From an uncultured virus (IMG/VR IMGVR_UViG_3300024179_000001) (lineage: Duplodnaviria > Heunggongvirae > Uroviricota > Caudoviricetes), in the IMG/VR virus record IMGVR_UViG_3300024179_000001: 20,000 bases of DNA; one strand, 5' to 3'. The translations under genes and the position numbers were made by a program. Each line of letters begins with the position of its first letter. The first letter of the stretch is position 1. Shown piece after piece: positions 217 to 19,526 of the stretch. The notes below the pieces were generated by a model. That model had not been told where the DNA came from. It was given only the letters and a program-made list of their open reading frames with translations, and searched no databases.

Positions 217-594
217 ATGGCCGTCGCAACACTTACAGTTAAGGCTGGATTCGTACAGACCAACGACCAGCGTACGCAAAGCTTCTGGGGCACGTTTCAG
301 GTCAGCGCGCCGACGGACATTTATCCGGCCGGTGGGTTCTCTCTGGATCCTGTGCTTCTGGCAGCTCTCCAGCCGAACACTAATACTGGTTTAATCGGAT
401 TTCAGGCGAACGGTTCCGGTGCTGGTTATATCTATCAGCGCATTCCGTCCACCGGAAAACTGATGGTCTTGCAGGTTCCTTTCAACGGATCGCTCACCAC
501 GGCGGCGCCGCTGATTCAGTATCCGTCCTCGGCGGTGTCTGGCATCTGGGCTGACGTGATCAGCTTTGAAGCCATCTATCTCCGCAACGCGTAA
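217..594 (+). CDS. Small phage virion structural protein (125 aa), function unknown
   Basis: Strong SD AGAAGGAG at 202-209 before ATG 217. Beta-rich G/S/T sequence with YPAGG and GYIY...GKL motifs. Sits among structural genes. Confidence 0.75.
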   Translation: MAVATLTVKAGFVQTNDQRTQSFWGTFQVSAPTDIYPAGGFSLDPVLLAALQPNTNTGLIGFQANGSGAGYIYQRIPSTGKLMVLQVPFNGSLTTAAPLIQYPSSAVSGIWADVISFEAIYLRNA

Positions 595-1055: not shown

Positions 1056-1110
1056 TTTATAAGGGAGTAGTAAAATTAACAACGCTGATCAGCCTTTCAT
1101 CTCTGCACCG

Positions 1111-4100: not shown

Positions 4101-5646
4101 AAACGCTTATCAGATCCTGAATTCCTCGGGCATTTCGCAAGCAACCTACGGGATGATCACGCAGAACGCGTTCGAGGATGAATTCCTCGTGCCGATCATC
4201 AACGCGTCAACGACGTACAGCGTGCGCGTGACCGCACAGGTGCCGACAGGAGCTGCTGGCGGAAATCTTGTCGTGGATCTCTTCAGCCCGTCGTTCAACA
4301 AAGTTTTCGGATCGTTCACTCAGGCGCTCTCCGGAATCGCGACAACGATGCAGATCTTTACCGGGACGCTGCTGACGACAACCTTTGCTCCAGTTCCCAG
4401 CGATCTCCTGATCCGGATCTACGCGACGACGATTGCGAATGGCGTCGAAGTGATCATTGATCGCATCGAGCCATTCCCCACGGAGACGCCGAACCTGAAC
4501 GTGCAGGTGATCGGATCCTATAGCGAGGCCTTCGAGCAGTTTGATCGTCTGACTGGAATCGTGAAGGCGAACCAGCAGAACCAGCAGCCAGTGGTTTCCG
4601 GATTCGTGCTCTCCGGAAATTTCTATCTCGTGAAGACTGGCTCGATCGTCGCCGTCAACAGCAATGACACGACGGAGCCATCGTTCTGGAATACGCCGCG
4701 CGTGATTTCTCAAACCGTCGGCGCCGTCGGTCCTTACGCTGTTTCGCTCGCCATCGACACGAAGAATTCCGGCGAAGAGTGGGCCGTCATCGCCAACCAG
4801 GCAGGAGCATTCCTCTTTCAGGGCAGCCAGCCGATCAAGCTTTCTGAAGAGATCCAGCGGCTCTGGAACATGATCAACTGGATCGTCGGCTACACAGTGT
4901 GGGTGCAGAACGACATCATCAACCGCAGGATCCTGATCGGCGTGCCGCTCAAGGCGCTGCAGGTGGATGGAACAGTGCCGACGTGGCTCCCTGTAGGGCT
5001 TTTCACGGATAACAATCCTCAGACACCGAATGCGATCCTTGCGCTGAACTACAAGCAGCTGAACACGGCGAACGCGCTCGCAAGCGACGTGATGATCCAC
5101 CGGAGCTACTCCGGGAAACTGATCGCCTCGGACATCGTGCGGAAGTGGTCGATCTGGACCGTGAAGGCGCCGTGCGCCGCCTTCGTGCAGCGGCTGGACA
5201 CAACGACACCGCTCTTCCTCGGGAATTCGGATCACAACGGAAAGATCTTCGCGCTAATCGAGGGCCTGCTGCAGGATGACGGCAATGCCGTCAACCAGAT
5301 CTACGCGACAGCAGGCTTCATGCCGACAGAGGCCGCCGAAGGAATGCAGCTGGGCGTCACGCGGTTCACATTCGAGTACGCGACGATGGTGATCGACGGA
5401 TCTGGAACTGTCGTGACGACGGTCTATCCGAACACGCTCGACACTCCGTACTCGCACGTCCTGTTGCCGAATCTGGCGCTGCCGGCGTCTACCAACGGAG
5501 ACGTCGAAATGCCGCTGAACGAAACCGGATCGCGTCTCTTCCTGATCTTCAGCTCGAACGCAGTTGGATCAGGATACGAGCTCTCGCGGCTGATCGTGAT
5601 GATGACAAAGGATCCATGGAGCCCGATCCGTGGTGTGAATAATTAA
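1111..5646 (+). CDS. Large virion protein, probably tail nozzle / packaged-DNA stabilisation protein (T7 gp12 / P22 gp10-like position), with several inserted beta-rich domains
   Basis: 1511-aa ORF rich in G/S/T/N/V. The N-terminal GGL...P..LP.GASP...NCDF..GSV..RPG and the late KLSEEIQRLW...ND...RRILIGVP segments resemble podovirus nozzle beta-propeller proteins. It lies upstream of the GNAT and ejection-protein genes. The true start may be ATT at 1075 (see findings). Confidence 0.7.
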   Translation: MELMGGLYTEATPESLPLGASPRVINCDFILGSVFQRPGKQSQFYFGSIFIENVTKSASSVAGSQAPNEAAWSNPTNATKNIPGTYASVTLNFGGGTGPIGPVDKVVTAGSNIAQAGFSVGPITPSLAGEWAFLALHSSGTVYAPPFAVFDSVSVQASALFTGLNPLTATGNFGGPNQTWAAVLASFFTNGSTPVVFNTNHGNNSASFPVSSMVVNLPHSTVQGHTILVTCYDLGAVNLNNVTAVDNLGNNYTLIGKSQNGIGGRDMFLLGLANIPAGITQLTISKSGGFASAQCEVQEIANFSSPPPTPGVSQILQSLNFAFNIPSTQFVLGMEVEVSGNQSDLTANSILTATVVSGGVTSAPVTGQLPSVDGTIALGQPTSNFGFALTPAFMNSPNLTVNLVASASAANAVFNIYAVKLKVFVTPNPPPNFNYIKTFAETGGEVLTLVLGSDGVFYQEDAINAPGVLTGVATNILPDSFAQSATVDDREFIAVSNLQNGTDVPRTYTPPNFDRLSQVGPGAPPAASSSSASNTIVSITQPTVKSDVANPGHLSGILWSAGPGSTAVGNVLTVYYVGTNFQPVADPDLVIGAGVQLAGIDPSQFAGQTVNGDYIITSVGQGVPPGAAQSRWYFTVTMPSSQSINQANHIEAHAPTGTYQVTTATLTAAAQVPNLEVGGTLQISGTGGAPTAGYDGSWTVNATPNASQLQITSTVLNGNVATYGFNLITGTNPVVGQIITVSGTLNGNGIFNVQNQAISATSPGSFSITLFGPNVSSAAETGSGIIFGTIFQFDPLVIVGNRLGGNLVTTGIISAGVRKVCYSFLTRNGFMTQPSPITTFDVTSGAANLQISNLLTGPSNVIARVIHLTAANGSNFYNIPEPVPINDNGTIVTSTSTWVNDNTTQSVTLSFSDGVLLAADQIDIQGNNLFENIELGSCVALIPYNQRIFAVGEQNKITNLLNFSFDGGITASGAPAGWTVDPTNGAGGSVVSSPVFGNAYQILNSSGISQATYGMITQNAFEDEFLVPIINASTTYSVRVTAQVPTGAAGGNLVVDLFSPSFNKVFGSFTQALSGIATTMQIFTGTLLTTTFAPVPSDLLIRIYATTIANGVEVIIDRIEPFPTETPNLNVQVIGSYSEAFEQFDRLTGIVKANQQNQQPVVSGFVLSGNFYLVKTGSIVAVNSNDTTEPSFWNTPRVISQTVGAVGPYAVSLAIDTKNSGEEWAVIANQAGAFLFQGSQPIKLSEEIQRLWNMINWIVGYTVWVQNDIINRRILIGVPLKALQVDGTVPTWLPVGLFTDNNPQTPNAILALNYKQLNTANALASDVMIHRSYSGKLIASDIVRKWSIWTVKAPCAAFVQRLDTTTPLFLGNSDHNGKIFALIEGLLQDDGNAVNQIYATAGFMPTEAAEGMQLGVTRFTFEYATMVIDGSGTVVTTVYPNTLDTPYSHVLLPNLALPASTNGDVEMPLNETGSRLFLIFSSNAVGSGYELSRLIVMMTKDPWSPIRGVNN

Positions 5647-5655
5647 GGCTTAATT

Positions 5656-6249
5656 ATGCCCATCGACATCGAAAAGGAGATCACCTTCCTCCGCAACATT
5701 CCGGAGATCGGACGCTATCTGGGTGAAGCGTTCCGGAAGATGGTCGATGGAACAAACCTACTGGGCCAGAATTCAGCGGTGGATGCGGTTGGAACGATGC
5801 CGCCGCCTCCGACAGTGCAGCAGCTGCAGGTAAAGACAAACGGCGCAGGCCTCGTCCACGCCGTGATCACCGATAACAATCCGATCCAGAAAAACCTGCA
5901 CTACTTCGTCGAGTACGATACGGATCCAAGTTTTCTAAAGCCGCACGTCGTTCACCTCGGCGCATCCCGTTCAATGAACCCGTTGAACCTGCCAGCGCTC
6001 GACGACAACGGGAATCCGCAGAAGTTTTATTTTCGCGCCTATTCGCAGTACCCGGGAAGCAAACCAGGCACAGTGGTGCATTTTGGCGGCGACATGCCGA
6101 CGGCAGTCGATCCCGGAGGAACGCAGCAGATGACGCTGCTCCCATCGACGGGATCCGGAACCGCGCAAGCGACAGGTGAGCAGGGCGGATCTGGTTTTGG
6201 TAAAGTCCTCTTCAGGCCAGCGCCCAGTGCGAAGAGGTCCGCGAAGTGA
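5656..6249 (+). CDS. Hypothetical phage virion protein (197 aa)
   Basis: Starts 9 nt after the previous stop and its stop overlaps the next start (GTGA). Short N-terminal helix followed by a beta-rich segment. Codon style matches its neighbours. Confidence 0.75.
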   Translation: MPIDIEKEITFLRNIPEIGRYLGEAFRKMVDGTNLLGQNSAVDAVGTMPPPPTVQQLQVKTNGAGLVHAVITDNNPIQKNLHYFVEYDTDPSFLKPHVVHLGASRSMNPLNLPALDDNGNPQKFYFRAYSQYPGSKPGTVVHFGGDMPTAVDPGGTQQMTLLPSTGSGTAQATGEQGGSGFGKVLFRPAPSAKRSAK

Positions 6250-6674
6250 TCAGGCATTTCGACTTCAGTGAAATAGAAAAAGCGCGTGAGATTCACAAGG
6301 CAAACGGACTCGACGAAAGATGCTTCCCGGATCTCGAAGTCAGGACCGAGAAGGGCGATATCGTTCCGAATCCGCTTTTTGTCGTGAAAGAAGTTTTCGA
6401 GCACGAAGGCGCGCCAGTGCTGATGAGCTTTCTGAAGATCACCTCGGAGCTCTACCTGCTCGTCGATCACACGGTGGGAACGCCAGCGGATCGCTGGGAG
6501 TGGCTCAAAGCTTTCAAGGAGCACATGAAAGTGGAAGCGTGGCGGCTGGGTCTCGATCAGATGACCGCATGGATCCCGTCCGACATCGAAAAAAGTTTCG
6601 CAGACAGGCTTGAGGAAATGGGCTTCATCAAGTCGCCGTGGCAATCGTGGACACTGAATATCGAGAACGAGTGA
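6246..6674 (+). CDS. Putative GNAT-fold acyltransferase-like protein (T7 gp13-like position)
   Basis: 142 aa, GTG start overlapping the upstream TGA. The C-terminal AWRLGLDQMTAWI...FADRLEEMGF resembles the end of a GNAT fold. Lies between the nozzle-like and internal virion genes, as in podoviruses. Confidence 0.6.
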   Translation: MIRHFDFSEIEKAREIHKANGLDERCFPDLEVRTEKGDIVPNPLFVVKEVFEHEGAPVLMSFLKITSELYLLVDHTVGTPADRWEWLKAFKEHMKVEAWRLGLDQMTAWIPSDIEKSFADRLEEMGFIKSPWQSWTLNIENE

Positions 6675-6683
6675 TCAGCGAGT

Positions 6684-6713
6684 CCGATTTGTGGCATACT
6701 CTACACGAATCGG
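6684..6713 (+). promoter_or_regulatory. Intergenic stem-loop overlapping an extended -10-like element
   Basis: CCGATTTGTG (6684-6693) pairs with CACGAATCGG (6704-6713) with one G-U pair. TG-G-CATACT (6692-6700) resembles TGnTATAAT. It lies just upstream of the three ejection-protein genes. Confidence 0.4.
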
Positions 6714-6734
6714 GTTAAGGTGAGGAGCAGCACT

Positions 6735-7397
6735 ATGGCCCGAATCACGATCAACCCAGTCATCGACATGGAAACGCTCCAACTCGTCGGCCACGACGGG
6801 CAGTACGAAATCGATCACATCCCACTTCGTTTTGATCGCGGCGCCACGGGGCAAGCGAAGAAGCTCGGCCAGCAGGCCGGAGAAACCGGAGCAACGGCTG
6901 GATCAGAAGCTGCCGTTGATCGGTCTTCTGTTATTCCCGGGCTCGTTCGCGACGTCAATAATCCAACCGGATTCACTCCCGAGCAACGAAACGACATGCT
7001 CGTGAAGCAGCAGGAAGCGGCTGGCGGTGGAAACGCAGCCGTGACCGGAGAAGGGCGCCTCGCGGCATTGCGTACGCGCACCGCCGGAGGTTTTGCGCCG
7101 GCGCTCGCCGAAGCCGCGCGATCCAAGGGACGCACACTCGCGACAGGTGCTCTCGACGTAGCGAACCGCAACGCGGAGCTCGAGCAACAGAAGCAGGCGC
7201 AGGCGCGCCAGCAACTGCTCGGACTGTACGGAGTCGATACATCGAACATGCTGAAATCCATGGGCCTGCAGTCTCAGGATCTTCAGGATCAGCTCGCCGC
7301 TGGCCGTCAGGGCTGGCTGCAGAACACCGAAGGCGTGCTGGGTACCCTCGGAAATCTCGGATCGAGTGCAGCTGGAGTTAAGAAGGCGTTCGGCTAA
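6735..7397 (+). CDS. Putative small internal virion / DNA ejection protein (220 aa)
   Basis: SD GAGGAG at 6722-6727 supports ATG 6735 rather than 6720. The body is A/G/Q-rich and helical with a Gly-rich hydrophobic tail (GVLGTLGNLGSSAAG). First of three genes after the GNAT. Confidence 0.7.
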   Translation: MARITINPVIDMETLQLVGHDGQYEIDHIPLRFDRGATGQAKKLGQQAGETGATAGSEAAVDRSSVIPGLVRDVNNPTGFTPEQRNDMLVKQQEAAGGGNAAVTGEGRLAALRTRTAGGFAPALAEAARSKGRTLATGALDVANRNAELEQQKQAQARQQLLGLYGVDTSNMLKSMGLQSQDLQDQLAAGRQGWLQNTEGVLGTLGNLGSSAAGVKKAFG

Positions 7398-7406
7398 GGG
7401 AAACTG

Positions 7407-9272
7407 ATGGCTCTCTCTCTCGATGACATCATCGCAGCTCCGACAGATCCCGATCTCCTGAACCAGCATCTTCAGGGTCTGGGACTTTTGAAGCGGCCAG
7501 AAGAAACGGCGCCCGTGCAGGTTGCGCCGATGTCTACGGTGACGCCGCATTCCGACGTCGCTCCGATGTCACCAGTAAAAACGGAAACAGGAACAGCTGC
7601 ACCGCTGACTGGCCTGAATCGTGAGCTCGCCCTCGGTGCAACTGTTCAACCGAACAAGCCAGTGGCGCACATGGCGGATCTTTCCGGCGGGGCAGATATC
7701 GGCGCTGCCGCAACGCCCGAAGGTGGAGTCAGCGTGAAGCCAATGACTCTTCCGAATCTTACGCACACGGAAAAGATGGCTCTGCCGCAAACTTCTCCCG
7801 GAGTCTCTGACGTGGGCAGCGCGGCCTTCACGCGCAATGAGCTCGAGCGGCTCGAGGAGCAGAAAGCGCATCCGTGGGGAACTCCTGAAAATCATCCGGG
7901 CACTCTCGGGAAGATTGGCCACGTCGCTGGCAAGATCGGAAATATCGCGCTCGATGTTTTGGCGCCTGGTATCGGCGTCAATATTCCGGGAACGGATCTG
8001 AACCGGATGGCGAACGAATCCGAACTGAAGCGTGAGCTCGCTTCGCGCACCGCTGCGGAGGGCCAAGCGAAGAATCTCGCCTCCGAAGAAGAGGCTCGTG
8101 ACGTCACTACCGCGGAGGGCCGTGAACGATTGAAGAAAATGCAGACCGAGCAAAGCCTCGAGAAGGATATCGAAGGCAATATCACCGGATGGAAAGGCCC
8201 TGACGGAAAACTTCACTCGCTCGATGAAGAAGGAACTCCGCAGGCGATCAAGGACATCGCCGCTGAAACGACAGCGAAGCAGACGAAGCCGACGATCGAG
8301 AAGATGGACAACGGCGACATCGTTGCCGTCACTCCGGGAGTCAACGGAGCTCCGGCGAAATCGCAGGTCGTTTATCACGGGGATCCTAAGCTCGAAACCG
8401 AACTCACGCAGCGCACCGTCGGCGGTCAGGAGCACAAGATCCTGATCAACAAGAAAACGGGCGAGGACATCAAGGATCTCGGCGCATTTAAGACCGAGGT
8501 CTCTCCGACGGCAGCGATCAACAAGGAAAAGGCCAACGAGCGAGTTGTTCTGGCCTACGACAAGAACAACAAGGCGCACCTGATGTCGAGGGGTGACGCC
8601 GAAGAAGAAGGAATGCAGCACATCACTGCGGCGCAGTCCGGTGACATCGATAAAGCCAAGACTCACCACGTCGTGCTGAACACGCTGCAGACGCAACTCA
8701 ACAGCGTTGTGAACTCAAGCAAGGCGCTCGATCAGGGATACGCGCAACGCTCGATCATCGCCAGTGCTCTCAGCCATCCGACGAACACGACGGTCGATTC
8801 CTTGATGCGTGCGGCCGTCCTTTCTGGCGCGACGGAAGAAACGAAGAATTATGTGCAGGCGGTGATCGCGCTCCGCGAAGCAGGGCTCGCACTTCCGAAG
8901 GAGATCACGGGTGGATCGCGGATTGCGGAAGTTCAAGCGTCGGCGTTGTGGGCAACGATGCCTTCGGCTGCTTCACTTAACAGCAAGTACGCGCTCAAGC
9001 AGGCCAAGAAGTTTCAGCAGGACATTGATCGTCTGCGCGAACGTGCACCTGACGTTCGGGGAATGAATATCGTGGATCCGGACGACATGATTAAGAGCAA
9101 GGGTGAGGAGAAACAACACACAACTGGTGGTGGTGCCGCTCCAGCTCCTCCCCCGGGTAAAGTGACTGTGAATGATCCTGAAGGCAAACCGCATTTCGTG
9201 AACGAAAACGCTGTCGATGATTTCCTGAAAGATCCGAAGTACAAGGGATGGAAGCGTGGCACAGGACGATAA
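7407..9272 (+). CDS. Putative internal virion / ejection protein (621 aa)
   Basis: Follows an AAGGG SD. Low-complexity P/T/A N-terminus, a Gly-rich segment GTLGKIGHVAGKIGNIALDVLAPGIG, coiled-coil-like stretches, and a C-terminal VTVNDPEGKPHFV motif. The position fits podovirus ejection proteins. Confidence 0.7.
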   Translation: MALSLDDIIAAPTDPDLLNQHLQGLGLLKRPEETAPVQVAPMSTVTPHSDVAPMSPVKTETGTAAPLTGLNRELALGATVQPNKPVAHMADLSGGADIGAAATPEGGVSVKPMTLPNLTHTEKMALPQTSPGVSDVGSAAFTRNELERLEEQKAHPWGTPENHPGTLGKIGHVAGKIGNIALDVLAPGIGVNIPGTDLNRMANESELKRELASRTAAEGQAKNLASEEEARDVTTAEGRERLKKMQTEQSLEKDIEGNITGWKGPDGKLHSLDEEGTPQAIKDIAAETTAKQTKPTIEKMDNGDIVAVTPGVNGAPAKSQVVYHGDPKLETELTQRTVGGQEHKILINKKTGEDIKDLGAFKTEVSPTAAINKEKANERVVLAYDKNNKAHLMSRGDAEEEGMQHITAAQSGDIDKAKTHHVVLNTLQTQLNSVVNSSKALDQGYAQRSIIASALSHPTNTTVDSLMRAAVLSGATEETKNYVQAVIALREAGLALPKEITGGSRIAEVQASALWATMPSAASLNSKYALKQAKKFQQDIDRLRERAPDVRGMNIVDPDDMIKSKGEEKQHTTGGGAAPAPPPGKVTVNDPEGKPHFVNENAVDDFLKDPKYKGWKRGTGR

Positions 9273-12200
9273 GTACGGCCTTGAACCAGCGGATGAAAAG
9301 TATGGCCTGTCTCCCGCAGGCACCGCTGCAGCTACGGCTGAACCTCCGTCCGATGAAGAGATCGAGGCGGCGTACGGCAAAGACGTCTCTCCGAAGATCC
9401 GCGCAGCCGTAAAAAGCGGCGTCGCGAAAATGCAGCCGCCGACGAAGTTCGAGCAAGATCGGCCGCAGATAAAAGAAAATTACGGATTCACTCCCGGCAA
9501 TGTAGCCAAAAATGCAGTGGAAGGCGCGGCTGGCCTCGTGAAGTCAGGCGCCGAGGGCCTCTACGACGTTGGATTCGTACAGGGCAAGGACGAAGAGGGA
9601 AACATCAAGCACGGCGTCGGTGGACTTGTCGGGATCAACGACAAAGGCGAGTTCGCTCCCATGGAGCGCCTCAACGCACTCACGCAGAAATATGTTACGG
9701 ATCCCGCAGTCGCCGAATGGAATAAAGGAAGTGAAGAGGGCGGCTTTGCTGGCATTGGTCACAAAGCGCTGTCGACGATTCCACTGGTCGGCCCATGGGC
9801 CGGAAGCATCGGTGAGCAAGCTGGAACCGGAGACATCGGTGGTGCCACTGGTCAGGTCGCTGGCCAAGTCGCTCTTGGTGAGCTCGCTCATCACGCTCCG
9901 GCGCTCGCCGACAAAGTTGTGCGCGGAACGCCACTCACGGAAGCCGGAAAACTCGCGGCTGCGAAGGAACAGGCGCTGACTGTCAAAAAGCCGACGATGA
10001 CGGAGACGGAATATTCCGCGAAGGTACAGGCTGCGCTTCCGGATCTGCAAAAAGTCGCGCAGGACAATACCGGAAAGATCAAAACGCCGCGCGACGCCGT
10101 CGGCGCTATCAATCGCCGCGTTCAGGAAATGGAAGCGCCAATCGGCGAGCACCTGAAGGGTCTGAACAGGCCAGAAGACATGGTGCACGTCGATCAGTAC
10201 CACGATCAGATCGACAAAGCCATCGACGCGGAGATGGCGAAGCATCCCGGGCAGCTGACGGCCGCAGAAATCGAGAAGGCCAAGACCCAGATCGATAAAT
10301 TTGTCGGCGATCAGCCGAAAACTCTCGAAGAAGTCGAAGGAAACCGCAAGCGGTTGAATCAGGACGCGGAGGATTACTACAAATCGCGGCCAGCCGACAA
10401 GCGCGTGATGGATTCTTCCGACGCAACAGCGATTGCACAGCGTGCGGCGGCGAATGCGATCCGTTCGATCCTCTACGGAGACGACGCGAACCCCGGATTG
10501 CTCGAAAAAGCTGGCGTGACAGCCGTCGATCAGGCTGGGAATCAGGTTCCGCTCCGCGAATTCCGCCAGAAAGTCGGAAACCTTCTCGAAGTGCGCGATC
10601 ACTTCGAGGATGCAATTGTCCGCGCGGAACAAACCGGGAACTGGAAGGCGTTCGACAAGCTGCACAGCGGTCCTTCTTTGGCTGCTGGTGGTCTTGGCGC
10701 CATCGGTGGTCTCGTGGCTGGTGGTCCGCTTGGCGCGCTCTTTGGAACGCTCGCTGGTGAGGGTGTGAAGGCGTGGGGCGACTACCTGCGCTCGAAAAAT
10801 CCGAATCTGAACGTCCAGAAAATGTTCCGGAACCTCGAGGCCACCGGAAAACCGAACACGATCGAGCCCGTGACGCGGGATATCCAGCATCAGTACCAAG
10901 ACGCCATCGGACCACAGACATCGCAGCACGCCGAACCGATTGGACCCGCGCGGCCTCCGGGAAACTTCCAGATGGAAGACCTCCAGCCGAATCAGGACGC
11001 CCTTTGGCAGCAGCAGGTGGGCCAGCCACCGCCGCTCGAGACCGGAGCTCCTTCGCCGGGGCGCCACGTAGAGCCCATAGGACCGCAACCACAGGCCGAA
11101 GCGCCCCTCGGACCCATCCAAGGTCAGCAGATCCCTTTGCACCTCCCCAGCGGCCCGGAAGAGGCTCCTCTGTTCGGTATAGGGCTTCCTGAGTCTCGGA
11201 AGGCACCTGCGGGAGCTCCAGAAGCCCCTGCGGCGCCCCCGGCAGCCGTCGGAGGGCCCGGGCGGGAAGGTACGCTGGGCCGGATCGACATGACGCCCAA
11301 GAGGACGGCAGTCGAGGACCTGAAAGTCGGGGATACGTTCGTCGACGACAAGGGCGATCCGCGCCGGATCACGGATATCACCGAGGACGGCACGGTGAAG
11401 ACCGCCGATCACACGATGCGCGATTACAAGGCCGACGAGATCGAGCACCTCGGCGAGATCAACTCTCCACGGGCGCAGCTGGCGCGCGGCGGCGTGTTCC
11501 ACGCTGGGCCTGAGGAAGACAGGTACGATCTCGGAGAAATTGGCGGCACGGAAACTCCGCGTGGCGAAGAAGTGGCGCCGATGGAGCGCCCGACGGAAGA
11601 GAAGAAAATCGGAGAGCCGGAGAGGAAAGAATTCCTCGACGCCATTAAAAAGCTCGGTGGAGACACTGAGCTCGCGGACGAGCAGTGGCATGAGATGAGC
11701 GAAGAAGAACGCGCTCACGCGCTCGACAGGTATCGTGGCCAGCTCGAAGGGAAGGGACCAAGGACTGAGCCCGTCCAGTCTGTCGAAAAGGCCATCGATG
11801 CGCTAAAGGAACGCGTCAAGGATCGATCACACAAGGGTCAGGAACGCGATTATCAGGTGGCTCCGTCTGGCGAAGTAAATCCGCGCCAACTCTACCAGAC
11901 GACGTTCCTCCTCGACGACGGATCCGCGCTGCAGGGCGACATGGGAATCAAATCGCACATGCAGCTCGCGCGTGAAGTCGGCCAGCATCACTTGAACGAT
12001 GCGAATGCGATCCGCATCGTCACGCCAGATTCGTACGAGCTCCATGGAATGCCGTCCGAAGCGCAGCTCGCGGAAATGAATCGTTACTTCCGTGAGTTGT
12101 CGCGCGCAGATCGGCAGAACGTCCACGACGCCGGCTATGTGTACTGGGATTTCTATCCGAAAGAAGTGACCGGATACTCGGCTGACGCGGTGCACGCGGA

Positions 12201-13335
12201 TCACGCGACTGGAGCTGGATCGTTCTCCGATTTCCGCAGGGCTATCGACGAATATTATTCTCCGACGACAACCGTCAAGGTTTCTCCTGACGGATCCTCG
12301 GTGAAGTTGATGGAGAATCCGCTCAATGTGAAAGGCACCGGAGAGAAGGGGCGCGTCAGCACCGCAGATCTCCTGAAGGCCTTCAATAAGTACACGAAGC
12401 AAACCATCGGCAAGCTGTCGATGGAAAAAGCGGAGCCAGCAGAAATGGTCGAACGCGCAAAATCTCTCGCTGAAGATGAAGCGAAGTATCAGCTCGCACG
12501 GGACAACAGCGGCGCCGCCTGGTACACGAAGCAGATGGACGAGCATGATGCCGTAGCGCAACAGATGCGCCCCGATCTGCGGGATCCCGCGAAGCTGAGT
12601 CTTTTCAAAATGGCCGAGGCGGTTCTTTCCGCAGGCCAGAAGCCGTACGGAAATTTCAAGTCCGCGATGAAGGCGTGGGACGGATACGTGGACACCGGGA
12701 AATTCCCCGAGCGGAATCCGGAGACAGGGAAATCGTGGGGCCCGAGATCCGCTGCAGCTTACGGAAACGCGCTCGGCATGCTCAATAATCTGATCGAAGA
12801 GCATGGCGAGAAAGGCGCATCGGACTGGTTGCTGTCCGAGCATCCAGTCAGTGAGTTGCGGAAATACAACGAAAATGTTTCGGGCAAAATGGATTCGCAA
12901 CGTCCCGGAGTTCTGATCCTCGGCGAGAAGCGTGGACTTTTCGCGCAAAACCTCCACAAGATCGAAAGCGCGTTCACTGCGGACATGTGGGTGGCGCGAA
13001 CTTGGAACCGCTGGATGGGAACTGCGGAGGTCGATCCGAAAACAGGCGAGATCGCAAGCGATGCCCCGCGCAACGACTCCGAACGCGCGCTGATGCGCGA
13101 GACGTTCGACGCGACAGCTGAAAAGCTGGGATTGTCGACGAGCGCCCTGCAGGCCGTGCTCTGGTATTACGAGCAGGCGTTGCACAACGCGCACGGTGTG
13201 CCGAAGGAAAGCTGGAGCTTCTCAGACGCGGCGAAAAGGGCTTCGGACGAAGAGGCGGGAATTGCGACGACGACAAAGAGCGGGAAAGCCGTAAAGCCGA
13301 AAGCTGCTGCTACTTTGTCGCCTGTCCGTCAGTGA
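9256..13335 (+). CDS. Large multidomain (polyvalent) internal virion protein with a C-terminal HhH-GPD DNA glycosylase-like domain
   Basis: 1359 aa, GTG start overlapping the previous gene. Gly-rich hydrophobic segments (e.g. LAAGGLGAIGGLVAGGPLGALFGTLAG), a Pro-rich linker, a small VEDLKVGD beta-barrel-like module, an FLLDDG..SH..AIRI module, and a C-terminal domain with WY...AVLS...GEK...F..NL...TADMW..R...LQAVLW. Confidence 0.75.
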   Translation: MAQDDKYGLEPADEKYGLSPAGTAAATAEPPSDEEIEAAYGKDVSPKIRAAVKSGVAKMQPPTKFEQDRPQIKENYGFTPGNVAKNAVEGAAGLVKSGAEGLYDVGFVQGKDEEGNIKHGVGGLVGINDKGEFAPMERLNALTQKYVTDPAVAEWNKGSEEGGFAGIGHKALSTIPLVGPWAGSIGEQAGTGDIGGATGQVAGQVALGELAHHAPALADKVVRGTPLTEAGKLAAAKEQALTVKKPTMTETEYSAKVQAALPDLQKVAQDNTGKIKTPRDAVGAINRRVQEMEAPIGEHLKGLNRPEDMVHVDQYHDQIDKAIDAEMAKHPGQLTAAEIEKAKTQIDKFVGDQPKTLEEVEGNRKRLNQDAEDYYKSRPADKRVMDSSDATAIAQRAAANAIRSILYGDDANPGLLEKAGVTAVDQAGNQVPLREFRQKVGNLLEVRDHFEDAIVRAEQTGNWKAFDKLHSGPSLAAGGLGAIGGLVAGGPLGALFGTLAGEGVKAWGDYLRSKNPNLNVQKMFRNLEATGKPNTIEPVTRDIQHQYQDAIGPQTSQHAEPIGPARPPGNFQMEDLQPNQDALWQQQVGQPPPLETGAPSPGRHVEPIGPQPQAEAPLGPIQGQQIPLHLPSGPEEAPLFGIGLPESRKAPAGAPEAPAAPPAAVGGPGREGTLGRIDMTPKRTAVEDLKVGDTFVDDKGDPRRITDITEDGTVKTADHTMRDYKADEIEHLGEINSPRAQLARGGVFHAGPEEDRYDLGEIGGTETPRGEEVAPMERPTEEKKIGEPERKEFLDAIKKLGGDTELADEQWHEMSEEERAHALDRYRGQLEGKGPRTEPVQSVEKAIDALKERVKDRSHKGQERDYQVAPSGEVNPRQLYQTTFLLDDGSALQGDMGIKSHMQLAREVGQHHLNDANAIRIVTPDSYELHGMPSEAQLAEMNRYFRELSRADRQNVHDAGYVYWDFYPKEVTGYSADAVHADHATGAGSFSDFRRAIDEYYSPTTTVKVSPDGSSVKLMENPLNVKGTGEKGRVSTADLLKAFNKYTKQTIGKLSMEKAEPAEMVERAKSLAEDEAKYQLARDNSGAAWYTKQMDEHDAVAQQMRPDLRDPAKLSLFKMAEAVLSAGQKPYGNFKSAMKAWDGYVDTGKFPERNPETGKSWGPRSAAAYGNALGMLNNLIEEHGEKGASDWLLSEHPVSELRKYNENVSGKMDSQRPGVLILGEKRGLFAQNLHKIESAFTADMWVARTWNRWMGTAEVDPKTGEIASDAPRNDSERALMRETFDATAEKLGLSTSALQAVLWYYEQALHNAHGVPKESWSFSDAAKRASDEEAGIATTTKSGKAVKPKAAATLSPVRQ
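9265..9318 (+). repeat. Tandem 27-nt coding repeat (DDKYGLEPA / DEKYGLSPA)
   Basis: Two degenerate copies at the N-terminus of the 1359-aa protein, visible in both DNA and protein. Confidence 0.7.
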
Positions 13336-13480
13336 TCTTCTTGAGCTTCGGGACGTAGTCCTTGCGAGCTGCACCCATGGCCTCACTGAACTTTTCTGGC
13401 GTGGGCATCTGTCCGGACTTGATGAGTTGCTGGGCAATATTGCGGAGTTCCGAAGGCGTCAGTTGTTTCTCGTTGTCCAT
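13310..13480 (-). CDS. Small 56-aa helical protein, convergent with and overlapping the end of the polyvalent gene
   Basis: Translated by hand: MDNEKQLTPSELRNIAQQLIKSGQMPTPEKFSEAMGAARKDYVPKLKKITDGQATK*. SD GGAGG (13490-13486) lies 5 nt before ATG 13480, with a TACAAT -10-like hexamer at 13502-13497. Shorter than any ORF in the supplied track. Confidence 0.8.
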   Translation of the reverse strand: MDNEKQLTPSELRNIAQQLIKSGQMPTPEKFSEAMGAARKDYVPKLKKITDGQATK

Positions 13481-13485
13481 GGATT

Positions 13486-13502
13486 CCTCCTGTCGAATTG
13501 TA
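13486..13502 (-). promoter_or_regulatory. -10-like box plus SD for the 56-aa antisense gene
   Basis: The minus strand reads TACAAT-tcgaca-GGAGG-aatcc-ATG. No convincing -35 element. Confidence 0.5.
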
Positions 13503-13514
13503 CTCCGGAAAGTC

Positions 13515-13606
13515 GCGCTGTGCCGATCACTGTTACTGGGTGGCCCTTAGTCGCCGCCGACTTCCGTCAGCGAAGGGTGCCAATGGATCGGGCGTTTCCC
13601 CAGCGC
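13515..13606 (-). ncRNA. Candidate structured RNA or leader (long irregular hairpin with a GGAA tetraloop); family not recognised
   Basis: Nested helices on the minus strand: GCGCTG/CAGCGC, CCGATC/GATCGG, CCCTT/AAGGG and CGCTGAC-GGAA-GTCGGCG. Lies in the largest non-coding gap of the window. Confidence 0.35.
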
Positions 13607-13700: not shown

Positions 13701-13898
13701 ATGGCCATTCCCGTCGAGATCACGGTAGAGAAGGCGCTTGACCAGATCGCAGCAAGGAAACGCGTCCCCATCGGGATCCTCTCGTACGACATGGAGAAAG
13801 AGACGCTGGTGATCGAGCTCGTGGGCCAGATCCACCCGGATGAAGTGAACGCCCTCCTCATAAAGCTCGGAATCGAAGCGAACTTCACAGAAAAATGA
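13701..13898 (+). CDS. Hypothetical protein (65 aa), first gene of the GT operon
   Basis: Typical codon usage. Its stop is coupled to the next start through ATGA at 13895-13898. Confidence 0.7.
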   Translation: MAIPVEITVEKALDQIAARKRVPIGILSYDMEKETLVIELVGQIHPDEVNALLIKLGIEANFTEK

Positions 13899-15772
13899 AA
13901 ATTGCAATTGTCACAAACCTGAACGGAATAGGTTTGCAGCGCGACTACGAGCTCCTGCGCGATTTCCTCCAGCGTCTTGGGCACATTGTCGACGGGATCC
14001 AGTGGGACGGTCCAATCGATGAAGAAATTCAAGCATCGATACCGTACGATCTCGCGATCTTCCTTGAGGTGATTCCCCGGAACTTCCTCGAGCTCGCTCC
14101 GGTGAAGTGGGCATTCCTGAATCCGGAGTGGTGCAAGCCGGATGTGATCAAGATGGCCGAGCGGCACATCGACAGGATCTTCGCAAAGACGCACGAAGGC
14201 CAGAGGATCCTCGAGGGGACATTTCCGGGCAAAGTTTTCTATACGGGCTTCCTGACGCGCGATCAATTCACGCCGGCGATAAAACGCCAGAAATGGTTCC
14301 TGCACATCGGGGGAAATTCTTCGATGCGCGGGACACAGGCTGTGGTCGACGCATGGAAATGGAAAAAGGACGGCTTTGAGCTTCAGTGCAAGCTCTTCGT
14401 CGTCTCTTCGGTCTTGCAGGATAAGCCGAATCTTCTAAACGTCACCTACATCGAACGCGCGACGGAAGAAGAGCTCTACAGTCTGCAGAACCAGTGCATG
14501 TTCCATATCTATCCGAGCGGCACCGAGGGCTTCGGTCATGCGCTCCACGAATCGCTGAGTGTCGGCGCTGTCCTACTCGCTACGGATGCGCCGCCGATGA
14601 ATGAAATTAGCAACGCGTACCGGATGAAGGCGAAGAAGGTCGGCAAGTACAATCTTTCGGATGTCTATGAAGTGGACGCTATCGAGATCTTTGAATCGGT
14701 GCAAGCGGTCCTGACCGTCTATGATGGACCGCCCCAGTCGTGGCATTTCCCGCGAAAAGAATTTGAATCGCTGAACGCGGAATTCGCGACGCGATTCGAG
14801 AAGGAACTGCTTGCCATGGAGCCGGGAAAGAAAGCTCCAGTGGTCCGCACCGCGAAAACGAAACCGAGCATCGCGTTTATCGGAAATTTCAAGGCCAGCG
14901 AGAGCACAGAGAACATGATCCGCTGGGCGCTCGAGGAACGTCTCGGCTACGACGTCGAGCAGTTGCAGGAAAACGAAGTGAATCTGGCAGCGATCCGGAG
15001 CGCGTGTCTTTGGAACGACGCTCTCTTGTGGGTGAAGACTCCAAACTGGCTGCAGGTGACGAACCGTGAGATGGAGGAACTGCTCGAGGAGATCAAAATT
15101 CCGTCGTTCTCGATTCACCTCGACAAGTTCTGGGATATCACGGAGAGAGAGCCGCAGATCGGCGTGCATCCTTTCTGGAAGACCGATTTCGTTTTTACGG
15201 CCGACGGATCCGCGCAGGACAGATTCAGGGAACGCGGAGTGAATCACATCTGGATGAAGCCAGCGGTGAGTGAAGTCTACTGCCACCCAGGCTGGACGTG
15301 GGATATGTACCGCTGCGACGTCGGCTTCGTTGGAGCAAAGGACTACCACGCGCAATATCCCTTCAGGAAGCAGCTCGTCGAGTTCCTCGAGAAGACCTAC
15401 AAGGAACGCTTCCAGCACATCACAGGCCTGCGCGGCCACGGCCTGAACGATTTCTATGCGAGCTGCAAGGTTGTCGTCGGTGACTGCATCTTCGCCGGGA
15501 CGGAGAATTATTGGAGTGATCGTCTCCCTGAAACTGTCGGCCGCTACGGCTATCTCCTCCACCCCGATGTCGAGGGAATCGACATCCCTGTGAATGTATA
15601 TGGAGCACAGGAGCTTGATCATCTCCAGAACCGCATCGAGAGTTGCTTGGTTACAAATGAGCGGATCAGGAGAGACTGGATTGAAAATTGCGCGGAACAT
15701 GTACGGAAGTACGATACATGGACAGCGAGAATGCGCTGGATCCTCGAGCAGGTAATGGATGGAGGTTCCTGA
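13895..15772 (+). CDS. Two-module GT-B glycosyltransferase: N-terminal GT4-like domain plus C-terminal CgeB/YkvP-like domain
   Basis: The N-module starts MKIAIVT and has HIYPSGTEGFGHALHESLSVGAVLLATDAPPMNE (the E-x7-E GT4 motif). The C-module starts SIAFIGN and has CDVGFVG...YPFRKQL...LNDFYASCKVVVGD...YWSDRLPETVG...HVRKYDTWTARM. Confidence 0.85.
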   Translation: MKIAIVTNLNGIGLQRDYELLRDFLQRLGHIVDGIQWDGPIDEEIQASIPYDLAIFLEVIPRNFLELAPVKWAFLNPEWCKPDVIKMAERHIDRIFAKTHEGQRILEGTFPGKVFYTGFLTRDQFTPAIKRQKWFLHIGGNSSMRGTQAVVDAWKWKKDGFELQCKLFVVSSVLQDKPNLLNVTYIERATEEELYSLQNQCMFHIYPSGTEGFGHALHESLSVGAVLLATDAPPMNEISNAYRMKAKKVGKYNLSDVYEVDAIEIFESVQAVLTVYDGPPQSWHFPRKEFESLNAEFATRFEKELLAMEPGKKAPVVRTAKTKPSIAFIGNFKASESTENMIRWALEERLGYDVEQLQENEVNLAAIRSACLWNDALLWVKTPNWLQVTNREMEELLEEIKIPSFSIHLDKFWDITEREPQIGVHPFWKTDFVFTADGSAQDRFRERGVNHIWMKPAVSEVYCHPGWTWDMYRCDVGFVGAKDYHAQYPFRKQLVEFLEKTYKERFQHITGLRGHGLNDFYASCKVVVGDCIFAGTENYWSDRLPETVGRYGYLLHPDVEGIDIPVNVYGAQELDHLQNRIESCLVTNERIRRDWIENCAEHVRKYDTWTARMRWILEQVMDGGS

Positions 15773-16080
15773 TGCCGAAGTGCACAAAAGTTGACTGCGG
15801 AAACAAGGCCACCAAGGCCCTGAAGTTGATTTTCCGCAATGTGGCTGACGGTCCAGCGGTGAGCGCTTACGTCGCGCTGGTCGTCTGCGACGAGATCCAC
15901 ATGCCGGAGGAAGAAGTCGTCGAGTTCTACACGATGAACTTCGAGACGCTGTGCCTGTGCATCGATCAAGTGGGAAAGATCAAGCCGAACCTTGCACTCA
16001 CGAGATTTGCGTGGGTTCCTATCGCCGACGCGGAAGCGGAATGGACGAAGGCGATCAATGAAGCGAGGGAGAAACTATGA
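15772..16080 (+). CDS. Hypothetical protein (102 aa), possibly metal-binding
   Basis: SD GGAGG at 15761-15765 and the TGATG overlap place the start at 15772, not 15688. C-x4-C near the N-terminus and C-x3-H later. Confidence 0.7.
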   Translation: MPKCTKVDCGNKATKALKLIFRNVADGPAVSAYVALVVCDEIHMPEEEVVEFYTMNFETLCLCIDQVGKIKPNLALTRFAWVPIADAEAEWTKAINEAREKL

Positions 16081-16958
16081 TTCCGGTTATCTGGCACCAC
16101 TCGGACGGTTTCTGGGACTGTGCGTTTCCGAAATATATTCTCGATCACGCCGCTCGCTGCATGCACGTCGTCGGCCTCGACAAAGCGCCGATGTTTCTCG
16201 GACAAGATACCGTAGTGGTGGTTGTGCCTGGTCGGCACTCGGATCATCTCGATCAGTACGCCAGTCTGCGCGGAGTCGCAAGCGATTTCAAGAAAGTGAT
16301 CTACATCATCATCGGCGACGAAGAGGGCGTCTTCCAAGTCCGTGCGCTCCACAATGAGAACGCAAAGATCTGGTGGTTCATGCCGCCGTTCAATCCGAAG
16401 CAGGAAGTGGACCGCGTGGCGCCGAACGGATGGCCGACAAATGCGATCGAGATGATCGGTGAGGCGAGAAAAGCGAGCCGGGGAATCCGCAGCTTCGACT
16501 GGAGCTTCATGGGACAGGTGACGCACCGGAGGCGTGAGGAATGCGTCGCTGCCGCGAAGGATATCCCCCGGGGCCACCTTCTGTGCACGACTGGCTTCAC
16601 GAAGGGAGACACGCGAGAAAATTATTACGACGTCATGGTGAGATCCCGCGCGGTCCTTTGTCCTTCGGGGCCCTGCACGCCGGACTCGTTCCGGCTTGCA
16701 GAGGCCCTCGAGGCCGGATGCATGCCGATTGTCGATGACGCGACTCCGAACCCGCTTTATCCTCCGGGCTACTGGAAATACGTCTTCGCGAATCATCCGA
16801 TCCCATTTCCACTGGTCACCGATTGGAAAAATCTTCCTTTCATACTTGAGTTCTGCCGGGATAACTGGGAGCAGCGCATCGGCGCGTGCCGCCTCTGGTG
16901 GAAGAGCCAGAAGGAACGGATGATCGCGGAGATGAAGGAGGATCTCAGTGAAAAATAA
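16077..16958 (+). CDS. Exostosin / GT47-like glycosyltransferase
   Basis: WSFMGQ...YYDVMVRSRAVLCPSG...DSFRLAEALEAGCMPIV matches the GT47/exostosin signature (S.FCLCP.G...S.R..EAL..GCIPV). ATGA-coupled to the upstream gene. Confidence 0.85.
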   Translation: MIPVIWHHSDGFWDCAFPKYILDHAARCMHVVGLDKAPMFLGQDTVVVVVPGRHSDHLDQYASLRGVASDFKKVIYIIIGDEEGVFQVRALHNENAKIWWFMPPFNPKQEVDRVAPNGWPTNAIEMIGEARKASRGIRSFDWSFMGQVTHRRREECVAAAKDIPRGHLLCTTGFTKGDTRENYYDVMVRSRAVLCPSGPCTPDSFRLAEALEAGCMPIVDDATPNPLYPPGYWKYVFANHPIPFPLVTDWKNLPFILEFCRDNWEQRIGACRLWWKSQKERMIAEMKEDLSEK

Positions 16959-17712
16959 AATCACCGTTCTGATCCCGACGTCGCCGATTCCCGCGCATCC
17001 CTCGACGGACGTAATCGAAAAGGCGATCAACTCCGTTCGCCAGCATCTGCCGGATGTCCGCATCATCATCATGGCCGACGGCGTCCGCAAAGAGCAGGAG
17101 CACTACCACGACCAGTATCTCGAATACATCAAGAACCTCGTGGGGAAGTCGATCTTCCACTGGAAAAATATAGCGCTGATGCCGTTCACGGAGTTCATGC
17201 ACCAGGCGGCAATGACGCGCAAAGCGCTCGAGATGGTGGAGACGCCGCAGATCCTGTTCGTCGAGCACGACACGTTTTTCCTCGACGGCCTGCCGATTGA
17301 TTTCGAGGGTATCTCGAGAGTGATCGAGAAAGGCCACGCGAACATGGTCGGCTTCCATTGTCAGTGGGAGCCATGGGTGATCCCGGAACACGAGCACCTG
17401 ATGCTCGACAAGGAGCGCGCATACTTCGATGGCGTGCCGATGATCAGGACGTGGCAATGGAGCCAGAGGCCGCACGTCGCTTCGGCTGAGTTCTACCGGA
17501 TGATCCTCAGAAACCTTTTCAGCAAGAATTGCCGGACGATGATCGAGGACCGCATGCACGACGTGGTGCTGGGGACTCGCTTCGCTCTCGGCGATGCAGG
17601 CTGGAAAGAATGGAAGCTGATGTACTATGCCCCAACCGAAGGCGGCACCATCCGCAGGACGTGGACCGTCGATGGCCGGGGCGCGGATCCAAAATTTCCG
17701 ATGGAGTTCTAA
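16948..17712 (+). CDS. GT-A fold (GT2-like) glycosyltransferase, paralog 1
   Basis: ITVLIPT N-terminal strand, IIIMADG, and LFVEHD at the DXD-equivalent position. GTG start after GGAGG. Confidence 0.75.
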   Translation: MKNKITVLIPTSPIPAHPSTDVIEKAINSVRQHLPDVRIIIMADGVRKEQEHYHDQYLEYIKNLVGKSIFHWKNIALMPFTEFMHQAAMTRKALEMVETPQILFVEHDTFFLDGLPIDFEGISRVIEKGHANMVGFHCQWEPWVIPEHEHLMLDKERAYFDGVPMIRTWQWSQRPHVASAEFYRMILRNLFSKNCRTMIEDRMHDVVLGTRFALGDAGWKEWKLMYYAPTEGGTIRRTWTVDGRGADPKFPMEF

Positions 17713-17713
17713 A

Positions 17714-18460
17714 ATGACGACAGTATCGATTGCCGAAGCAAATTTCGTGAACCGCACGATCAACGGGAAATATCGGGTGAAGATGCCGGCGTACCTCGCC
17801 GCGCATGATTCTTTCGATAACTGGGAGCGCGAGCGGTTCGACAGTATGGAGCAGAACCTGAAGCAGGGCGACGTCCTCTTCGACGTCGGCGCCGAGACGG
17901 GACACATCTCGGCGATCTACGCGCGGTTTGTGGGCCCAGAAAACATGGTGATGTTCGAGTCGAATCCGGACAACTGGCAGAACATCTACGCGACGTGGCA
18001 GGCCGAAGGCCTTGCGGATCCGCTTGCTACGTTCTGCGGCCTTGTCAGCGATCAGACGCAGGTCCCGAAGACCAACTACGATCCCGCGTACATGGGAGCG
18101 TGGCCACTACCAGCGCTAACTGGGAGGGTGTGGACGCCGCGATCCTACCGCTACCTCCACGAGCACGCGCACAACACCGCGCAGATCACCCTCGATGATT
18201 TCTCTGCAACGAAGAAGATTATTCCGAAGGCGATCACCATCGACGTCGAGGGTGCGGAGTTCGAGGTGCTGCTCGGTGCCCGGGAGCTACTCAAAAAATC
18301 GCGGCCGCTCGTCTGGGTGAGTATCCATCCGGATCTGATGCTCGCGCACTACAAGCACTCGGTGAAAGAAGTTCTGAGCCTGATGGCGCTGCTAAATTAC
18401 AGGGATACGTGGCTCGCCAGCGACCACGAGATCCACTATCTCTTCAGGCCGCTGCTATGA
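17714..18460 (+). CDS. FkbM-family SAM-dependent methyltransferase
   Basis: VLFDVGAETG (motif I), VMFESNP, ITLDDF and TIDVEGAEFEVLLGA. The start is ATG 17714 (GGAG at 17703-17706), just after the upstream stop, rather than 17627. Confidence 0.9.
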   Translation: MTTVSIAEANFVNRTINGKYRVKMPAYLAAHDSFDNWERERFDSMEQNLKQGDVLFDVGAETGHISAIYARFVGPENMVMFESNPDNWQNIYATWQAEGLADPLATFCGLVSDQTQVPKTNYDPAYMGAWPLPALTGRVWTPRSYRYLHEHAHNTAQITLDDFSATKKIIPKAITIDVEGAEFEVLLGARELLKKSRPLVWVSIHPDLMLAHYKHSVKEVLSLMALLNYRDTWLASDHEIHYLFRPLL

Positions 18461-19194
18461 ATCTGCACGACGACATCACGGTGGTGATCCCCACCAGCCC
18501 CATTCCCAGTTGCCCGACAACCACGCTGATCGAGCAGACGATCAACAGTATTCGCGTCCATCTTCCCGACGTCGACATCCTCATCCAGGCGGATGGAGTT
18601 CGTCCGGAGCAGGAAAAATTCCGCGAGCCCTACAGGCTCTATATCGAAAGACTCGAGAACATCTGCTCCGATCCGGACAATAACATCACGATGATCGAGT
18701 TTGAGGAGTTCCATCATCAGGCGGCGATGATGAAGCGGAGCATCGGAGAAATCGGAACTCCGTTTCTCTTCTACGTCGAGCACGATCTTCCACTACTTCC
18801 GGATCCGATAGACTTCGTCGGAATGGTCCGGTTGCTTCGCTCCGGCGCCCTCAACCAGATCCGTCTGCACTACTGGTCGCAGATCCTCGACGATCATAAA
18901 TACTTAATGCTCGACGAGAAGCCGCTGTTGATGGACGGCGTTCCGATTGTCCGTACTGTGCAGTGGTCACAGCATCCCCACGTCGCGCGTGTAGACTTCT
19001 ACCAGCGGCTGATGGACGCGTTCTCTCCGAACTGCCGGACAATGATAGAAACTAAAGTGTACGGGCTGGTGCAGTCGGCGCGCTGGGACGATTACCGTTG
19101 CGGGATCTATGCCCCGGAGCCGAATCTCCGCAGGATCTACCACACGCATGGAAGGGAGGAAGAGCCTAAATGGGAAGAGAACTTTACATTCTGA
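18457..19194 (+). CDS. GT-A fold (GT2-like) glycosyltransferase, paralog 2
   Basis: Colinear with 16948-17712 (IPTSPIP, HLPDV, ADGVR, HQAAM, VEHD, LMLD, QWSQ.PHVA, NCRTMIE). Start is the ATGA overlap at 18457. Confidence 0.75.
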   Translation: MNLHDDITVVIPTSPIPSCPTTTLIEQTINSIRVHLPDVDILIQADGVRPEQEKFREPYRLYIERLENICSDPDNNITMIEFEEFHHQAAMMKRSIGEIGTPFLFYVEHDLPLLPDPIDFVGMVRLLRSGALNQIRLHYWSQILDDHKYLMLDEKPLLMDGVPIVRTVQWSQHPHVARVDFYQRLMDAFSPNCRTMIETKVYGLVQSARWDDYRCGIYAPEPNLRRIYHTHGREEEPKWEENFTF

Positions 19195-19526
19195 GATCCA
19201 CGAAAGGTCAATTCCTTCCCGGATCTCAAATCAGATTAATTCACGGCGGGGACCGAAGAGGGAAAAGAACTTCGACCTATGTTAGTTGGGTCGAAATGAA
19301 AAAGCGTTGTCTCAATCCGAATTGCGTCCAGTACAAGTATTACGGCGGCCGTGGAATTAAGATTTGCGCGAGGTGGCTGAAGTCTTTCAAAAACTTTCTC
19401 GCCGACATGGGTCATCGACCAGTAGGAAAAACCTTGGACCGTATAAAGACGAATGGACATTACAGGCCCTCAAACTGCCGTTGGGCCACGCACACGCAAC
19501 AGGTGCGAGGTAGGAGAAAGCGGTAG
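19170..19526 (+). CDS. Free-standing phage HNH homing endonuclease (118 aa)
   Basis: TYVSWVEMKKRCLNPN, YGGRGIKICARW, FLADMG and TLDRIKTNGHYRPSNCRWAT. AT-richer than its flanks and overlaps the upstream GT by 25 nt. Confidence 0.9.
   Translation: MGRELYILRSTKGQFLPGSQIRLIHGGDRRGKRTSTYVSWVEMKKRCLNPNCVQYKYYGGRGIKICARWLKSFKNFLADMGHRPVGKTLDRIKTNGHYRPSNCRWATHTQQVRGRRKR

Follow-up and report, generated by a model that had tools for sequence, protein, structure and literature searches.

A small gene linked to the glycosylase-fold domain of a giant phage protein: a candidate inhibitor gene

A giant phage protein described here ends in a domain with the predicted fold of a DNA glycosylase, and a small gene accompanies this domain in related phages in several different layouts. 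The best explanation, to which we assign a probability of roughly 55%, is that the small gene encodes the cognate inhibitor of a virion-delivered glycosylase/AP lyase and acts in self-protection. What was found, a small gene of no known family that lies directly behind a putative effector domain and is specific to that domain, is what characterizes effector-immunity pairs. Our analysis concerned a 20,000-nt stretch of DNA (the window), the final part of a virus record of 66,446 bp that is complete and has direct terminal repeats.

An antisense gene at the end of the giant gene

A preliminary description of this DNA had reported a 56-aa minus-strand ORF with a Shine-Dalgarno site, and a 26-nt overlap of that ORF with the giant gene. 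Its coordinates, the AGGAGG site, and the overlap (positions 13310-13335) were all verified (Table 1). The ORF is a real gene, given its AGGAGG site, its membership in a family of 517 small-protein clusters, and its pattern of codon changes. The reference for that comparison was L001, a phage with 89% identity over the glycosylase-fold domain, in which 13 codons of the ORF differ, 11 of them synonymously and two as Thr to Ser. The ribosome site and a TACACT box are retained in L001, whereas the DNA farther upstream of the ribosome site differs from that of the window. The -10-like box that had been ascribed to the ORF is indeed present, but the promoter-like site of which it is part (TCGGCA-18-TACAAT, 9/12) is not above chance when taken alone, with one site found against 0.5 +/- 0.8 in shuffled sequences.

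Table 1. Positions in the window of the small gene, its signals, and the giant gene with its C-terminal domain.
Feature	Position	Strand	Remarks
56-aa two-helix partner gene	13310..13480	-	ATG start; family consensus MxxxKxxPSDLxxEAxxLxxxGKMPxLExLLxAVAxxRxxYAPKI
Shine-Dalgarno AGGAGG	13486..13491	-	5 nt before ATG; GGAGGAATCC retained in L001
-10-like TACAAT	13497..13502	-	16 nt before ATG; L001 counterpart TACACT at 17 nt
Weak -35-like TCGGCA (4 of 6)	13521..13526	-	absent as such from L001
Gene of 1359-aa polyvalent-type protein	9256..13335	+	end of structural block; protein likely ejected from the virion
HhH-GPD DNA-glycosylase-fold domain	12316..13275	+	weak match to Pfam DUF7178
Lys1225 in G-x-K, predicted catalytic lysine	12928..12930	+	invariant in 73/73 rows
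Asp1243 in T-x-D-x-W-x-x-R, predicted catalytic aspartate	12982..12984	+	18 residues after the lysine; 73/73 rows

The giant protein and its C-terminal domain

The giant gene shares the plus strand with the terminase genes, while RecT-like and exonuclease-like genes occupy the minus strand. Polyvalent proteins are large multi-domain proteins described as being injected with the DNA (PMC7824862). Like them, the giant protein is large and multi-domain; some of its homologues carry PF18760 and PF18834, and matches of the domain in BFVD are labeled as large-polyvalent and ART-PolyVal proteins. The domain occurs in gp16 of Octadecabacter phage BD virus 1, which is encoded by an 8,961-nt gene between a lysozyme gene and a tailspike gene. 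That the giant protein is likely ejected with the DNA is suggested by the BFVD labels, the context of gp16, and the descriptions of polyvalent proteins. The giant gene of L001 (1161-5945) has an extra block of roughly 235 aa upstream of the glycosylase domain (1594 versus 1359 aa), a domain gain or loss typical of polyvalent proteins.

Searches with the last 311 residues of the giant protein found 80 relatives of 574-1996 aa. An AlphaFold2 model of the domain, based on an alignment of 73 rows, had a pLDDT of 94.3 and a pTM of 0.90 and showed a two-lobed helical fold with a helix-hairpin-helix. When the model was compared with PDB folds, all 23 representatives with Z of at least 5 had the HhH-GPD fold, and unrelated folds scored at most 3.9. 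The best match was the OGG2 enzyme Tm1821 (3n0u), with Z 11.8 and rmsd 4.0 over 200/209 aligned residues at 13% identity; other repair enzymes, MutY and NTH1, were also among the nearest folds. Foldseek also placed OGG2 first among PDB entries, but with E 0.05 at best, and searching the PDB with the domain sequence yielded no credible match. The "glycosylase-like" label of the preliminary description therefore holds at the level of the fold. As the domain covers 200/209 residues of Tm1821 without the peptide, the fold is not one that the peptide completes.

Three residues of the domain (G203, K205, and D223) are invariant in 73/73 rows, and the pattern G-x-K...D-x-W recurs in 9/11 later loci, with K205 itself having formed part of one search pattern. 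The catalytic pair of hOGG1 is Lys249 and Asp268, 19 residues apart (PMC3397491), and from the sequence spacing we infer that Lys1225 and Asp1243 form a glycosylase/AP-lyase dyad. Where the superfamily has a Gly/Pro-rich stretch before the Asp, G215 is present in 70/73 rows, but the sequence there is F-T-A-D without Pro. The domain resembles OGG2 (Tm1821 3n0u, MjOgg 3fhf) in its HhH-GPD fold and in having the G-x-K and the Asp 18 residues apart; unlike OGG2, it has about 100 more residues and is embedded in giant proteins, in addition to the low identity noted above. OGG2 requires a C-terminal lysine, its last residue, for 8-oxoG cleavage (PMC3397491). We rejected membership in OGG2 because this lysine is absent: the window protein ends ...PVRQ, and the domain is internal in L013, L015, L128, and L166. 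Membership in DUF7178 (PF23802) was likewise rejected, the window domain scoring 17.5 bits (E 0.004) against a cut-off of 27 bits. Of the domain members, 50/73 match DUF7178 at E<=0.5 (best 9e-8), and that family is a distant relative only. Similar folds also included queuine salvage enzymes (Z 8.6) and, at Z 6.5, a DNA amino-acid transferase from a phage (8z2m), so that damage to DNA does not necessarily follow from the fold.

Linkage of the small gene to the domain

Domain-first scans gave 161 loci, and an iterated profile of the peptide was run over 23,486 six-frame segments. It matched 69/162 sequences (window included), with one match per sequence. The peptide was present at 62/66 loci with at least 50% domain identity or, counted by 90% clusters, in 46/47. 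The four loci without it comprise L118 and L123, whose sequences stop before the stop codon of the big gene; L106, which has no partner gene within 1897 nt downstream; and L129, in which a TTGACA promoter-like site is followed by a 52-aa ORF of another kind. Peptide-first scans gave six distinct contigs, all six with the domain directly upstream, in a small test whose contigs were all known already from the domain-first scan. Of the 88 loci from the pattern scans among these searches, most were chance matches, and eight rows were family members. The tie between peptide and domain that the preliminary description had supposed is thus borne out, both at the close loci and in the peptide-first contigs.

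The family profile matched 517 small-protein clusters at E<=0.001 among 1.84 billion representatives, all of them sequences without genomic context; among the 150 matches listed, all are 43-154 aa long. In the model of the peptide (pLDDT 84.7, pTM 0.48), two helices, residues 9-22 and 28-54, lie around an invariant G-x-x-P turn. Net charge in 52 members ranges from -3 to +6, so the peptides are neutral to basic and not acidic. A word-index search with the single peptide matched only the near-identical P0001, and the ESM Atlas gave no usable match. Matches to Pfam and PHROG were all sub-threshold and included no DNA-binding family. A PDB profile search returned designed armadillo repeats with no passing stretch, the best Z in a fold search with the model was an uninformative 4.2, and tblastn of one family member against 50,697 phage records found no match. 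In L069, the ORF that immediately follows the domain gene is 251 aa long (4479-5234, plus strand) and begins with the family motif (15.4 bits, beating all shuffles); it is possibly a fused form of the family.

Neighboring, nested, inverted, and displaced layouts

Among 53 clusters of the peptide, 40 have the gene as a same-strand neighbor of the giant gene, eight have it overprinted in the +1 frame, three have it antisense (the window with L083, the L001 group, and L012), and two have it displaced 0.5 and 3 kb downstream. The antisense orientation, which had been taken as a feature of the module, is therefore an exception. A quick tree of 41 rows needed two changes of strand, and more than one is not forced.

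In the eight nested clusters, the +1-frame gene begins 31-103 nt past the W-Y-Y-E codons, inside the giant gene. The same gene is overprinted on the giant gene of other phages, a form that the preliminary description had overlooked. In L013, L015, and L128 the big ORF runs 2.4-3.3 kb beyond the domain, and the peptide gene is nested right behind the domain, 37-103 nt past the W-Y-Y-E codons, which indicates that the small gene tracks the domain and not the end of the gene. A nested peptide was also found in L166, where the big ORF continues for 4.1 kb; this locus, retrieved after the peptide profile had been built, scored 26.6 bits, above all 1980 shuffles. The occurrence of the small gene on the opposite strand, and 3 kb away in one cluster, indicates a separate protein and not a frameshifted tail. 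The W-Y-Y codons (window 13162-13170 and homologues) can spell TG-n-TATTAT, an extended -10-like sequence, upstream of nested partners. The second Tyr is TAT in 7/8 nested clusters (3.3 expected), a count that is also raised in other classes (7/14 versus 5.5, and 5/8 versus 3.0).

The slot behind distant domains

More distant domains have small ORFs in the same place. Domains with less than 50% identity form 31 clusters (clustered at 80%), seven of them profile-positive. In 29 of the 31, an ATG ORF of 40-90 aa starts in the +1 frame 25-140 nt past W-Y-Y-E, whereas 2.4 would be expected on the basis of other positions in these ORFs, and frame +2 has none. The limits of length and distance were set after preliminary data, and the number of nested starts is inflated because the domain's S-D-G and Y-E codons yield an ATG when read in the +1 frame. 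Slot ORFs with a ribosome site numbered 18 in these clusters versus 0.5 expected. Later loci had a +1-frame ORF of 35-110 aa that starts 20-200 nt after the anchor in 10/11 cases, with none in frame +2.

One freshwater clade (28 distinct sequences) was compared by pairwise codon differences, the pairs not being independent. In its nested core, the synonymous share was 0.65 when codons were read in the +1 frame but 0.047 when read in the host frame; in the domain core this was reversed (0.11 in the +1 frame, 0.74 in the host frame). The +1-frame slot genes thus appear to be under selection in the one clade tested. When the distant nested ORFs were compared with the peptide profile, only L166 and L069 of 99 segments beat all shuffles, and the rest were not detectably related to it.

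Two further types of slot ORF were observed. Limnohabitans phage DC33 (L176, PQ492659.1) has an unannotated 71-aa ORF (approx. 10232-10447) in the +1 frame inside LBILNBIM_00045, with an AGGAG site and 178 nt after the domain anchor. It has a P-G-L-T motif in common with the nested ORFs of L045, L046, L047, L049, and L052, and we regard these ORFs as a second partner family, one with a member in a cultured phage. A third type, with P-H-P ... L-x-x-L ... G-V-L, comprises nested, basic, helical ORFs of 46-51 aa about 100 nt after W-Y-Y-E in L058, L060, L062, L064, and L066; by profile, these are not detectably related to the window peptide.

Transcription of the small gene

A TTGACA hexamer lies within 70 nt of the start of the small gene in 28/53 clusters, compared with 6/250 other starts with a Shine-Dalgarno site and ATG that served as controls. 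Its presence depends on layout: it was found in 24/24 clusters with a gap of more than 20 nt, 3/16 coupled, 1/2 displaced, 0/8 nested, and 0/3 antisense clusters, and in L114 it is retained although the gene is displaced by 3 kb. Of the 24 gap-type clusters, 18 have their best -10 box ending 14-18 nt upstream of the ATG, a range that includes the position of the window's TACAAT. The 24 gap-type clusters are not independent, because they collapse to eight at 80% identity. Given TTGACA in all of them versus 6/250 controls, much of the peptide family is likely transcribed separately, by host polymerase, with a host-type promoter rather than inversion as the means of independence; the -35 of the window itself is poor.

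The preliminary description had proposed transcription independent of the late operon and expression early or in a lysogen. Independent transcription agrees with the gap-type clusters; the window's own promoter is weak, and TTGACA is lacking from the antisense clusters. Expression in a lysogen is unsupported, since the complete 66-kb genome has no match to the tyrosine integrase family PF00589. In addition, no integrase or repressor labels occurred among the PHROG matches of 68/99 ORFs of at least 120 aa (genome 1-47,500) and of 18 window ORFs.

Discussion

If the peptide is an inhibitor, the following sequence of events can be proposed. The giant protein would be packaged and ejected with the genome, and its domain, with the predicted HhH-GPD fold and Lys/Asp dyad, would excise a base and/or nick abasic sites, its target being DNA of the host or of competitors during the first minutes of infection. 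The small gene behind the domain, whether neighbor, +1 overprint, or inverted, would be transcribed soon after entry by the host sigma70 polymerase from its own promoter or, in coupled and nested layouts, might alternatively be co-translated with the late message. Its product would bind the domain and inactivate the enzyme both ahead of phage replication and during the synthesis of new copies destined for virions.

The linkage of peptide and domain, the tracking of the domain within longer genes, the promoter of the small gene, and the replaced occupants of the slot argue for an inhibitor. Divergent small genes behind one conserved enzyme domain are a pattern of toxin-immunity systems (PMC5576092). 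Against it count the weak promoter of the window and the scarcity of TTGACA in antisense, nested, and coupled clusters; the partnerless L106, the lack of acidic peptides, and a fold that includes non-damaging enzymes; and the limits of the samples, namely the non-independent gap clusters, the peptide-first contigs that were known already, and the 517 clusters without context.

Tight linkage would fit equally well if the peptide were a positive partner, such as an activator, a specificity subunit, or a folding or packaging chaperone that binds the domain at assembly or after ejection. The 16/53 translationally coupled and eight nested clusters would suit such co-synthesis with the big protein. 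We nevertheless consider this reading unlikely: a TTGACA promoter that bypasses the big gene (24/24 gap clusters) uncouples the peptide from late synthesis, as does its inversion off the late strand in the window, L001, and L012, and the domain fold is complete without the peptide.

Because the nearest folds are repair enzymes, the domain could instead repair or modify the incoming genome without doing harm; the peptide, from a two-helix family that is basic to neutral, would then be a small regulator (e.g., of transcription) that accompanies the domain but does not bind it. We consider this rather improbable: to overprint a gene at precisely this point within a giant gene, just past the domain, carries a cost that makes little sense unless the two products are linked physically or by stoichiometry, and no DNA-binding family was matched by the peptide.

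Superinfection exclusion as the main function, in which the peptide neutralizes the same enzyme when injected by a second, related phage, would agree with an early host-type promoter, and divergent slot occupants would make the exclusion clade-specific. It also has a precedent in T4 Spackle, the inhibitor of gp5 (PMC7677548). The complete genome, however, lacks a PF00589 integrase and hence any sign of a lysogen, and the coupled and nested layouts suit late co-expression, so that we judge exclusion as the main function quite improbable. That the ORF is a product of chance on the antisense strand, or extends the big protein through a frameshift, can be dismissed for the window, even with the ATG-spelling codons noted above, given the 11:2 synonymous excess, the 517-cluster family, the ribosome site, and a gene that is on the opposite strand in three clusters and 3 kb away in another.

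With inhibition as the preferred reading, we tentatively extend it, at somewhat less than even odds, to a widespread module in which an ejected HhH glycosylase/AP lyase attacks non-self DNA and is switched off by a small phage inhibitor that unrelated genes replace elsewhere.

An effector with a small cognate partner is an already known arrangement. The MuF polymorphic toxins of temperate phages have a variable enzyme domain followed by a small ORF read as an immunity gene (PMC5576092). The system described here resembles them in joining a multi-domain phage protein, an enzyme domain, and a small ORF of no known family. It differs in its HhH-GPD fold and in a partner that is often overprinted, or inverted with its own promoter; membership among the MuF toxins was rejected, as the 1359-aa protein has neither MuF nor any other Pfam family at E<=0.05 and the genome has no tyrosine integrase (PF00589). 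T4 Spackle is likewise a small phage protein, made early, that inhibits the tail lysozyme gp5 by binding to it (PMC7677548), the proposed target here also being an enzyme domain of the phage's own virion. Spackle is periplasmic with a lysozyme as its target, whereas the target predicted here would act on DNA and the small gene abuts or nests in the gene of its target.

Small phage proteins that block DNA glycosylases are represented by Ugi and phi29 p56, acidic DNA-mimic inhibitors of the host uracil-DNA glycosylase, an enzyme of a different fold. The peptide is comparable as a small phage protein and proposed blocker of a DNA glycosylase, but it is linked to the phage's own enzyme. Its net charge excludes it from the DNA mimics, which have a strongly acidic surface. 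We know of no earlier protein inhibitor of an HhH-GPD enzyme, and if inhibition is true, these peptides would be the first. In a literature search in which subscription papers were thinly covered, no paper was found on the pair of peptide and glycosylase domain, nor any for "DUF7178". The main text of a 2017 paper on polyvalent proteins (PMC5512222) has no hits for "glycosylase" or "overlap".

New in this work are the inverted and promoter-bearing free forms, the peptide family, and the domain fold with its putative dyad. If our reading is true, phages carry a timed weapon-and-antidote system inside their own ejected protein; inhibition would add a base-excision weapon to phage biology and provide a natural inhibitor of the fold of OGG1, NTH1, and MutY. 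With only two genes, the pair also offers a direct experimental approach to the role of giant ejected proteins after entry and to the question of how phages withstand the cargo that they carry. The inverted copy in the window is a natural experiment indicating that small genes hidden in polyvalent genes are separate, trans-acting proteins. Annotation misses this class of gene, as with the unannotated slot ORF of DC33.

Other genes of the neighborhood

Several features of the surrounding DNA were noted. After the giant gene, genes for glycosyltransferases (GT1, GT47-like, and GT2) and an FkbM methyltransferase follow at window positions 13895-19194 (plus strand) and genome positions 405-3208, a cluster that spans the genome end. 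HNH-type endonuclease genes lie at 19170-19526 in the window and at 33283-33687, 34648-35112, and 47025-47492 in the genome. In L001, HNH-like ORFs (6163-6600, minus strand; 6694-7254, plus strand) flank a 65-aa gene after the promoter region of the small gene; the two HNH-like ORFs are absent in the window.

At genome positions 22863-23825 and 22954-23799 (plus strand), two ORFs overlap in different frames, and both have DNA-methyltransferase PHROGs as matches (E 8e-70 and 2e-25); we read them as a gene-in-gene cytosine methyltransferase pair. Should methylation serve to protect the phage's own DNA from the glycosylase by marking it as self, this pair would be of interest.
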